Virus genome (UHGV): UHGV-1366990
Length of the DNA: 64,000 nt
Origin: a virus
Reading direction: 5' to 3' (one strand)
Both the position numbers and the translations under genes were made by a program. Positions 48,910 through 50,105 of this stretch are shown here, in pieces. How positions within the stretch are numbered: position 1 is the first letter of the stretch; every line of letters begins with the position of its first letter. Under the pieces are notes generated by a model. The model was not told the origin of the DNA. It was given only the letters and a program-made list of their open reading frames with translations, and ran no database searches.

Positions 48910-49905
48910 TGCCCTTCACCTGCCAGGGATCAGGGCTGATGGCAAGACTTCGCTCACATCTTTCAAGATACTCGTGAGAATATCCTCAAAGATGTGGAGC
49001 CGTTTTTAGGAGTCGAACCCAAATGCTTGGCCAGCGCTGACCTTACATCCCATCTGACTTAGGCAACCCACCTCTGCTTACTCAGGAGCTTATCCCCTTT
49101 GGACAGTCAGATATAACGGCATTGTCGACGGGAGATTATTAATCACACCCTCCCGTCTATTTTAGTGCGCCGAATTTGGTGATGAGGAATCGGAAGACCT
49201 CACTGACTTATAGGCTGTTACGCCGCCATCAGAACTTCGGAATCATTAGCAGTTATTTGCTTGGTCAGTTTCTAAAAACCCGCAAAGTCACTCACAACGA
49301 AAACGAAAACCTGTTTGAGCACAAGACGCCATGTCCTGGGTTCACATCGAAGTGTTTGTCTAATGCCCAAACAGCTTTTCGCTTCAGTGGGTTAACTATA
49401 CTTTGTAACCCGTTATTGATAAAACCTTTTATTTTTGTTGGCGAGGGTATCACCATCGATTTACCGGAACTTACGCATCCGGCCTCGCCTGTTGGTGATC
49501 CTTCGAATCCGGGAAGATCAGTAGGAACTATGAATCAAGTTAATTCAACCAACAGGAACCTTGTTGCCCTTTGACGCAACATTATGAACCCTCTATGGAA
49601 GACTCATAATGTTGTCGGCGTGATGGAGATTAGCGCCCCCGACCTCCCCTTGTGTTGGTGTCGACTTGCCAACGGGGTGCTCTCTATTTCTGAGCTAATC
49701 ACGCTACAACAGGGAGTTTCGTTCTCCGACGGTCAAGTGCGTCCACTGACACCATGCAAGGTGGATATTGACTTATGAAGCCGGAGTCCTCGTCCTAGGA
49801 CTGTGCTTGGCCTCAGCCTTTACACCGCTGGTCGCCCGACTCTTTACACCATAAAATTTACTATACTACAGCCAAGCTAATTTGAAAAGTCCTCTCCTCT
49901 TTGTG

Positions 49906-50052
49906 CTACACTGCCCACAGCAGTGCGGACGAACCTTCACACAAAACCGGATGCGCCGAAGTGGGCGACTGTTTACCGGACTGATCGGGTAGACCCAGGA
50001 GAGAGCAGGTAATCCCGATCAGGAGGATGAGGAGTAACATCATGTAAAACAT
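49906..50052 (-). CDS. small signal-peptide/lipoprotein-like peptide (48 aa, not in ORF track)
   Basis: ATG at 50052 preceded by a strong SD GGAAGGAGGG; encodes MFYMMLLLILLIGITCSLLG... ; stop TAG at 49906-49908. Confidence 0.4.
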   Translation of the reverse strand: MFYMMLLLILLIGITCSLLGLPDQSGKQSPTSAHPVLCEGSSALLWAV

Positions 50053-50092
50053 AGTGTTCCCTCCTTCCATGCAACTAACTTTACTGCAATTA

Positions 50093-50105
50093 TTTATTGA
50101 ATAAA
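50093..50105. promoter_or_regulatory. palindromic TTTATTGAATAAA motif
   Basis: Exact copy of the motif at 43996-44008; located between the 50109-50678 gene and the small peptide gene. Confidence 0.4.

Follow-up and report, generated by a model that had tools for sequence, protein, structure and literature searches.

The stretch analysed here is the 64,000-nt window of the virus genome UHGV-1366990, in which the kilobase that follows a cluster of tRNA genes harbors, on the minus strand, a conserved element resembling the mRNA-like part of transfer-messenger RNA (tmRNA). The 4 kb around this region share 94-99% identity with Ackermannviridae, such as Escherichia phage A221 and Agtrevirus vB_CECAV_050, and match Det7, CBA120, and Ag3 of the same family at lower identity, which assigns the window to a Vi1-like phage. 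The region is flanked by a minus-strand tRNA cluster on one side (tRNA-Ser, tRNA-Asn, and tRNA-Met at 47538-48472, called by ARAGORN and Rfam) and by a minus-strand gene of 189 aa on the other, and lies upstream of the baseplate genes.

An initial annotation of this DNA had reported the stretch from the tRNA cluster to the gene at 50109-50678 as devoid of any convincing long open reading frame (ORF), which agrees with both the ORF list and the alignment of the relatives, and had suggested that the region could hold a small RNA. This second idea proved correct, given that at least two conserved structured RNAs, together with hairpin modules, are found on the minus strand. What had been missed is that most of the region is conserved far beyond the level expected of a spacer and contains covarying minus-strand RNA folds; it is a cluster of non-coding RNA genes on the minus strand that extends the tRNA array, and no gene desert.

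The tmRNA-like element, with its mRNA-like domain (MLD), occupies 49127-49312 (minus strand); it opens at its 5' end with the conserved GGUUUUCG and closes with the 3' side of a hairpin whose loop is conserved. Behind a short structured leader, a tag frame is read from the sequence at 49218-49250 (minus strand), GCU AAU GAU UCC GAA GUU CUG AUG GCG GCG UAA, i.e., ANDSEVLMAA*, whose codons run from 49250 to 49221 and whose stop runs from 49220 to 49218. The trinucleotide A-U-A stands at -6 to -4, that is, three nucleotides before the alanine resume codon (GCU), and the upstream sequence is AUAACU before GCU in the window, AUAAAU before GCA in 112 of approximately 137 copies, and AUAGUC before GCA in Escherichia coli. 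The copies found by BLAST share a common block, which in the minus-strand alignment consists of a leader, ...GCGACUUUGCGG-UUUUUAGAAAC...AAAGAUAAAU, followed by the tag frame GCA AAC GAU GAU GUU GUU CUG AUG GCG GCG UAA (ANDDVVLMAA) and, 3' of the tag, by a stem around the stop codon, a hairpin with a loop that pairs with sequence farther downstream, and a second hairpin with the loop GGUGUGAUUAAUAA.

The distribution of the element is broad. A distant BLAST search with 48480-50110 gave, in addition to those in Ackermannviridae, matches to positions 49135-49304 of the window in N4-like and T1-like phages, in siphoviruses of Klebsiella, and in one lambdoid phage, all unannotated and 70-82% identical, and an exact pattern located the element in at least 119 IMG/VR contigs. 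It is also present in 137 of 5426 complete E. coli genomes, on the chromosome in every case and annotated in none, and the species-representative genomes contain it only in five Enterobacterales, namely two species of Rosenbergiella, and Pseudocitrobacter, Erwinia, and Pantoea; three of the eight hits of the genome scan, in metagenome-assembled genomes of Acidiluteibacter, Cyclobacteriaceae, and Eubacterium, were discarded as chance matches to the pattern that lack the element. To judge from these sequence matches, the element occurs in hundreds of unrelated enterobacterial phages and prophages, where it is never annotated as an RNA.

The genomic context also recurs. The element shares its strand with the adjacent tRNA genes in BUCT541, swi2, Carvaje, and ShWW44, and in three lambdoid phages or prophages, namely HK633, a prophage of E. 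coli 55989, and one of O26:H11, it is situated between Q/PR' and the holin gene, in a gap that carries no annotation, in the sense of late transcription. In the T1-like phages, the element is antisense to the flanking structural genes and has its own promoter approximately 10 nt upstream (TTGACA-17-TAGATT), with a terminator, formed by a hairpin and a T-run, approximately 490 nt downstream.

The coding pattern of the tag was analyzed in the approximately 137 copies, in which the window-type frame was read by eye. These comprise 28 nucleotide alleles that specify 15 peptides, all with ten codons and no internal stop, and share the form A-N/K-D/E-x-x-x-L-x-A/V-A. Entropy at the first, second, and third codon positions is 0.61, 0.48, and 0.98, respectively. 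Codons 1, 7, and 10 undergo synonymous changes only (GCA/GCT, CTG/TTG, and GCG/GCT/GCC), codons 2 and 3 vary almost solely at the third position (AAC/AAT, with one AAA for Lys, and GAT/GAA for Asp/Glu), and the stop is always present, as TAA, TGA, or TAG. The tag columns are free of gaps, whereas the flanking loops on both sides contain indels. As read from these alleles, the substitution pattern is that of a decoded frame, although part of it could stem from the pairing in helix 5. Canonical translation of the tag was considered and rejected, as the frame has neither a Shine-Dalgarno (SD) sequence nor an AUG, and an in-frame UAG lies eight codons upstream in the window and in most of the copies.

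The RNA structure was tested for covariation on 35 representatives of the element. A helix-5-like stem surrounds the stop codon (49203-49232, minus strand; CUGAU at 49232-49228 with GUCAG at 49207-49203), in which one pair is G-C in 20 sequences and A-U in 15, and pairing holds in 89.9% of the cells. It is followed by an H-type pseudoknot at 49170-49202 (minus strand), with stem 1 formed by UGAGG (49202-49198) and CCUCA (49187-49183), and stem 2 by CCGA (49193-49190) and UCGG (49173-49170). Five pairs of the pseudoknot stems show compensatory changes, with 98.9% and 99.3% of the cells paired; stem 1 varies as CAAGG/CCUUG, UGAGG/CCUCA, and CGGGG/CCCCG, and stem 2 as CCGA/UCGG or CCAG/CUGG. Overall, the helix-5-like and pseudoknot stems have 91.6% of their cells paired, in comparison with 29-48% in slid controls, and none of 500 shuffles reached the score.

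The terminal hairpin of the element (49127-49157, minus strand; GACGGGAG/CUCCCGUC) carries the 15-nt loop GGUGUGAUUAAUAAU, which is identical in nine of the ten loci found by BLAST and is closed by four unrelated stems in different phages, GCCC/GGGC, GRCGGGAG/CUCCCGYC, UCCCUGA/UCAGGGA, and AUCC/GGAU. A candidate for the stem of the pseudoknot PK1, CUUUG/CAAAG (UUAUG/CAUAA in the N4-like phages), is paired in 86.6% of the cells and has one compensatory event, with its second pseudoknot strand not identified, and a brute-force search for covarying columns in the 5' leader was uninformative, given its limited variation and considerable phylogenetic noise. Within the window, the covariance model built for the element (R1) hits a single copy, at 49164-49291, with 128.9 bits.

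The resemblance to tmRNA is seen at several levels. The Rfam tmRNA families hit each tested copy at the element, with sub-threshold scores of 22-31 bits for tmRNA_permuted, 23 bits for alpha_tmRNA, and 17-18 bits for beta_tmRNA, and the window element itself scores 22.3 bits with tmRNA_permuted, for which the threshold is 47. A hidden Markov model of the element aligns without gaps to nucleotides 80-127 of the E. coli ssrA, so that the two stay in register from the A-rich -10 region through the A-U-A, the resume codon (GCA), and the ten codons to the UAA. In the E. coli tmRNA, U85 and A86 set the frame. This role of the two nucleotides, U at -5 and A at -4, is also described in the literature (PMC2481249). 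Several hallmarks of the mRNA-like part of a tmRNA are found together in the element, that is, an alanine resume codon and a short tag with a hydrophobic-Ala end, the upstream U-A, and a stop codon enclosed by helix 5 and followed by a pseudoknot; the relationship with tmRNA is drawn from these collinear features, and not from a strong score. The existence of the element, its structure, and its resemblance to tmRNA are well supported, and the mechanism is a proposal.

One interpretation of this resemblance is that the element is a passenger relic, in which a fragment of ssrA from a host or an ancestral phage moved with the tRNA cassettes and is conserved only through its youth or as a spacer for the processing of tRNA precursors. 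Prophage fragments of ssrA have been reported and ascribed to imprecise excision (PMC9004378), and the locus is built of modules, with both indels and insertions of homing-endonuclease genes seen in the relatives. One of the approximately 137 copies, in the IMG/VR contig L113, has ACA (Thr) instead of the GCA resume codon, with the remaining tag intact, which is also consistent with a relic. However, at only about 70% identity between phage families, both the compensatory pairs and the tag frame are retained, and the element is present in strictly lytic phages that do not integrate. In addition, the element has no blastn match to the host ssrA, given that only 137 of the 5426 genomes are hit. 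Excision relics carry the 3' end of ssrA, where the attachment (att) sites lie, rather than the tag region, which also counts against this interpretation, and a relic is considered quite unlikely.

The HNH homing-endonuclease genes themselves lie, in the Salmonella phages FrontPhageNews (MW021754) and pSal-SNUABM-02 (MT857002), inside the stretch homologous to 49090-49420, and these insertions mean that free-standing endonuclease genes either target the RNA array or are tolerated in it. A group I intron in a tRNA gene, an idea that arises from these insertions and from tRNA pieces that look split, was rejected, as no Rfam intron model matches at E<=10 and the tRNA-like units are contiguous.

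A self-contained tRNA-like domain is found 3' of the element, both in the Ackermannviridae and in the siphovirus and prophage versions. The window has a 126-nt tRNA-like RNA at 48995-49120 (minus strand), the fold of which shows an acceptor stem GCCGUUA/AAACGGC, a T arm with the loop UUCGACU, and an encoded CCA. This RNA lacks an anticodon loop, the anticodon arm being a closed hairpin with a tetraloop, and its D arm consists of an 8-bp helix and a large loop. It hardly varies among Kuttervirus, Agtrevirus, and Taipeivirus, where one hairpin has changes that preserve its stem, and is matched neither by ARAGORN nor by the Rfam tRNA model, i.e., it is not a standard cloverleaf tRNA.

In the siphovirus and prophage versions, the element is followed by a long covarying helix around a variable insert, and then by a tRNA-like domain with the acceptor UUGUGGUG/CACCACAA, in which the loops of the D-like and T-like hairpins are complementary and covary as a kissing pair, GGCUGA/UCAGC versus GGUCGA/UCGAC. 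In the Q-to-holin gap of the E. coli 55989 prophage (L132, 2901-3356), CACAAC and GUUGUG recur at each module boundary, with the result that one and the same GUUGUG could pair in the long helix before it or in the acceptor stem of the tRNA-like domain after it; this may reflect a switch in folding or a joint used in recombination. In the T1-like and N4-like phages (L003, at approximately 1780-1860 on the minus strand, and also L010, L049, and L006), a 13-bp helix, CUUAACAUCCAGC/GCUGGAUGUUAAG, found 3' of the tRNA-like domain, encloses a conserved AUAUGUAGGGGUAUGUAUGGGU.

Other arrangements of a tmRNA were tried and rejected. A one-piece molecule has no 5' acceptor strand with a partner, the GUUUUCG being unpaired, and a pairing between GAGGCCG (49483) and CGGCUCC (49003), which would give G3:U70, is broken in vB_CECAV_050 (L001), in which U70 is changed to A, and shows no covariation. 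A permuted tmRNA of the Caulobacter type has the wrong gene order, and in the T1-like phages the promoter approximately 10 nt upstream of the element leaves no acceptor piece before it. The RNA-RNA duplexes predicted between the element and either the tRNA-like RNA or the E. coli tmRNA were no better than those of shuffled controls.

The best explanation of the locus, to which we give slightly better than even credence, is that of a minus-strand RNA cluster in which the element (49312 to 49127) derives from the MLD of a tmRNA and its tag is decoded by a route of the trans-translation type. Decoding is ranked as the likeliest option because of the coding signature, the principal rival being an untranslated decoy, that is, an RNA that would mimic the MLD and pseudoknot and titrate either a factor that recognizes tmRNA (SmpB, RNase R, or ribosomal protein S1) or some defence of the host, and thereby dampen or redirect trans-translation. 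The failure to find an attached canonical tRNA-like domain is compatible with a decoy, as is the conservation of the element, which is highest in the A-U-A, the pseudoknot, and the loop, and the reciprocal case, the tmRNA of DS6A, which consists of the tRNA-like domain only, has been argued to be inhibitory by Williams and colleagues (PMC4131195; PMC11915505). A decoy, however, needs no ten-codon frame, no conserved codons with synonymous changes only, no hydrophobic C-terminus ending in Ala, and no stop maintained through three different stop codons, and is regarded here as unlikely.

A number of points nevertheless weigh against the decoding of the element as a tmRNA-derived template. All of the Rfam tmRNA scores (22-31 bits) fall under the gathering thresholds (47-84), ARAGORN found no tmRNA in the window or in 12 loci, with a single spurious call that borrows tRNA-Met, and the element profile scores only 5.5 bits against the E. 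coli ssrA in nhmmer. The best match of R1 in the ssrA locus is indeed the tag region, but with only 7.6 bits, and homology to ssrA at the level of the sequence is not claimed as proven. No canonical tmRNA tRNA-like domain is attached and no GGGGC-type 5' strand is present, the conserved 5' GUUUUCG has no complementary partner downstream, and none of the T arms in the window has a matching strand after it. The neighbouring tRNA-like helices also lack G3:U70, with C3-G70 in the window and U3-A70 in the siphovirus and prophage type.

The order of the parts is a further difficulty, given that RNase P would be expected to separate a tag template from the tRNA-like domain that lies 3' of it, and we know of no mechanism that loads a free MLD onto the ribosome. 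Finally, most of the IMG/VR copies were retrieved by a pattern that fixes the terminal loop and the GGCGCACU block, which overstates the conservation of both.

Other RNA modules surround the element. A long hairpin, module U (CUGUUUGGGCAUUAGAC...GUCUUGUGCUCAAACAG; 49299-49381, minus strand), has arms that covary, changing together between lineages as GGGCAUUAGAC/GUCUUGUGCUC versus GAGUCCUGGCC/GGUUUAGGACUC. Upstream of this module, at 49395-49422 (minus strand), is a putative promoter, TTATCA-16-TATAGT, that is retained in all of the aligned relatives, and a second putative promoter, TTTTCA-17-TATAGT, at 49860-49888 (minus strand), just 3' of a small ORF described below, retains its -35 and spacer in the relatives.

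Conservation and RNAalifold point to a structured RNA of approximately 325 nt at 49446-49770 (minus strand), which is near-invariant over three genera and more conserved than the adjacent protein gene. Its changes include 1-nt indels and, in one phage, an insertion at the tip of a hairpin. RNAalifold gives a multi-branch fold of 87 pairs, of which six are compensatory and almost none are broken, with examples such as GCGUGAU/AUCACGC versus GUGUGAU/AUCACAC, and GUUGG/CCAAC versus GGCGG/CCGC, and the fold of the single sequence has z = -2.6. No Rfam family matches this RNA at E<=10, and a 26-mer taken from it is found only in contigs of 155-161 kb, i.e., of the size of the Ackermannviridae. The RNA ends in a stub of an acceptor-like helix, GGCGAGG/CCUCGCC, where Kuttervirus has a full T arm.

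Between the 126-nt RNA and tRNA-Met (48510-48996, minus strand), a chain of long hairpin modules is observed, with a 15-bp helix from 48996 to 48950, a 21-bp helix, CACAAAUCGAAGUGUCUUGAC/GUCAGGGCACUUCGAUUUGUG, around an insert of approximately 85 nt, from 48909 to 48783, and a hairpin of approximately 27 bp with an 18-bp perfect stem, at approximately 48690-48767, which has Rfam miRNA-precursor matches on both strands. A near-consensus sigma-70 promoter, TTGACA-17-AATAAT (11/12), lies directly upstream of tRNA-Met, at 48475-48503 (minus strand). Within the tRNA cluster, the T-arm motifs GGUUCGAAUCC and GGUUCGACUCC, with acceptor-like 3' strands, are seen at approximately 47840-47880 and 47370-47410 (minus strand) with no call by ARAGORN or Rfam, and in these two places the relatives have either tRNA-Tyr or a "pseudo tRNA with possible intron" (Det7).

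The protein-coding content of the region is small. The 48-codon ORF at 49906-50052 (minus strand) exists as initially annotated, with GGAAGGAGGG located 8 nt before its ATG, but it had not been overlooked, as it encodes a hydrophobic small protein of a known, annotated family, PHROG 8415 (E 3.8e-33, with all 48 residues aligned to profile positions 1-48). The ORF occurs, at 86-96% identity, in 199 phage records, and the annotations of Det7 (DET7_201), Vi01, CECAV_050, and others list it as a coding sequence (CDS).

The plus-strand ORF at 49176-49574 had been judged as probably not coding, and the relatives agree: it has no PHROG match and is interrupted in 10 of the 11 aligned relatives by 2-9 in-frame stops, several of them with a length that is not a multiple of three. 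Plus-strand coding was likewise rejected for the ORF at 49584-49778, with no PHROG match and with stops or frameshifts in the relatives. In Klebsiella phage May (L134) and vB_CECAV_050, the RNA array carries five to eight short "hypothetical protein" CDSs on either strand, which are probably spurious calls on structured RNA.

The direct repeat CTTTACACC is found twice, at 49818-49826 and 49842-49850, exactly as initially annotated, with 24 nt from start to start (49818-49850), and two other exact copies lie at 37277-37285 and 41266-41274 of the window. Four copies are present where 0.34 would be expected, and none of 100 shuffles reached four. This over-representation, together with the insertions, deletions, and HNH endonuclease genes nearby in the relatives, would suit the earlier alternatives, in which the main content of the region is an iteron-based replication origin, the scar of a mobile element, or a small secreted-peptide gene. 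However, the 9-mers lie within a segment of approximately 80 nt that is common only to the window, vB_CECAV_050, and L033, a single lineage, and in the other Kuttervirus and Taipeivirus relatives this segment is replaced by unrelated sequence, so that the repeats are not a conserved set of iterons.

An origin is contradicted by repeats that are specific to a lineage, and a scar by a core that is collinear and conserved over three genera, given that the remainder of the region is strongly conserved and covaries as RNA. The peptide gene, in turn, is only 147 nt long and belongs to a hypothetical-protein family that had already been annotated. These alternatives are, in consequence, considered very improbable as accounts of the region.

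If the tag is decoded by a route of the trans-translation type, the array would be transcribed together with the tRNAs and cut up by the enzymes that process tRNAs. The tRNA-like modules would be the sites for RNase P, and RNase E might cleave between AG and UUUU, at the conserved, putatively RNase E-like site that forms the 5' edge of the element. Stalled host ribosomes would then decode the tag template, and incomplete proteins of the infection would receive an ssrA-like tag specified by the phage; the delivering partner may be the phage's own tRNA-like RNA or the host Ala-tmRNA with SmpB. The transcription and processing of the array, the ribosomal reading of the tag, and the tRNA-like partner are inferences.

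A more specific form of this scheme, which we put forward as a tentative and rather doubtful possibility, is that of a split ribosome-rescue RNA carried by enterobacterial phages of several families, in which a free tag template would be excised from the tRNA-like array and loaded in trans on stalled ribosomes, with the phage tag replacing that of the host. The loader, as part of this same proposal, might be a non-alanine, non-canonical tRNA-like RNA of the phage, or the host Ala-tmRNA with SmpB, and the RNA of approximately 325 nt could be a further component of such a system. If true, this would be the first trans-acting MLD and a new viral route for the reprogramming of protein quality control.

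The element would also bear on phage biology and annotation. If the family is real, a tag template has gone unannotated in well-studied and therapeutic groups of phages, including the Vi1-like phages and Kuttervirus, the T1-like and N4-like phages, and the lambdoid prophages of pathogenic E. coli; the tools that find phage tmRNAs need a tRNA-like domain. Decoding of the tag, if it occurs, would suggest that the phages tune the tag, and hence the fate, of incomplete proteins during infection, and the element raises the question of whether tmRNA can function with its mRNA-like and tRNA-like halves reordered or unjoined. In practical terms, the "intergenic" kilobases beside phage tRNA genes and in the leaders of late operons merit annotation for RNA genes, given that spurious ORFs are called there now.

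Among known systems, the element resembles the E. coli ssrA, the tag of which is ANDENYALAA. Both have the A-U-A at -6 to -4 (A84-U85-A86 in E. coli) and an alanine resume codon, both ten-codon tags begin with AND(D/E) and end in small hydrophobic residues and Ala, and in both the UAA lies inside a helix-5-type stem with a pseudoknot directly after it. Unlike the bacterial tmRNA (RF00023), the element has no attached acceptor and T-arm domain and no G3:U70, has a single downstream pseudoknot rather than three, with only a candidate PK1, and has the whole of its tRNA-like domain 3' of the tag template. In phage T4, stable non-tRNA RNAs, species 1 and 2, are likewise embedded among the tRNA genes; they are small structured RNAs that are presumably co-processed with the tRNAs and are not known to carry a tag template, and the likeness is one of location and presumed processing.

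Two-piece tmRNAs, which are known in marine phages such as Melnitz (PMC9004378), as well as in the Alphaproteobacteria, some Betaproteobacteria, and the Cyanobacteria, resemble the element in having a tag template and a tRNA-like part that form distinct, separable domains within a single precursor, and the permuted-tmRNA models are the best Rfam matches of the element. In these molecules, however, the gene begins with the acceptor piece, and the coding piece continues directly from the 5' acceptor strand, whereas in the phages described here the coding part is placed ahead of the tRNA-like domain, both acceptor strands of which are downstream.

Among the phages, tmRNAs are known from the mycobacteriophage Bxz1 group, Bacillus phage G, and mycobacteriophage DS6A, which has the tRNA-like domain only (PMC4131195; PMC11915505), and those detectable by ARAGORN are present in 2.3% of phage genomes (PMC4131195, PMC11915505, PMC9004378). 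The literature searched, which leaves most subscription journals uncovered and makes an earlier description possible, contains no description of the element, of its tag peptides, or of a tmRNA in the Ackermannviridae or enterobacterial phages. We read the element as a tmRNA-derived tag template of unusual split architecture, a new architectural variant that lacks the canonical tRNA-like domain and is shared across enterobacterial phage families. Like the known phage tmRNAs, it would be a phage-borne derivative of ssrA, and DS6A provides the example of a phage that carries one half of a tmRNA alone; whereas those molecules are either complete or restricted to the tRNA-like half, the element corresponds to the reciprocal half, the tag template.

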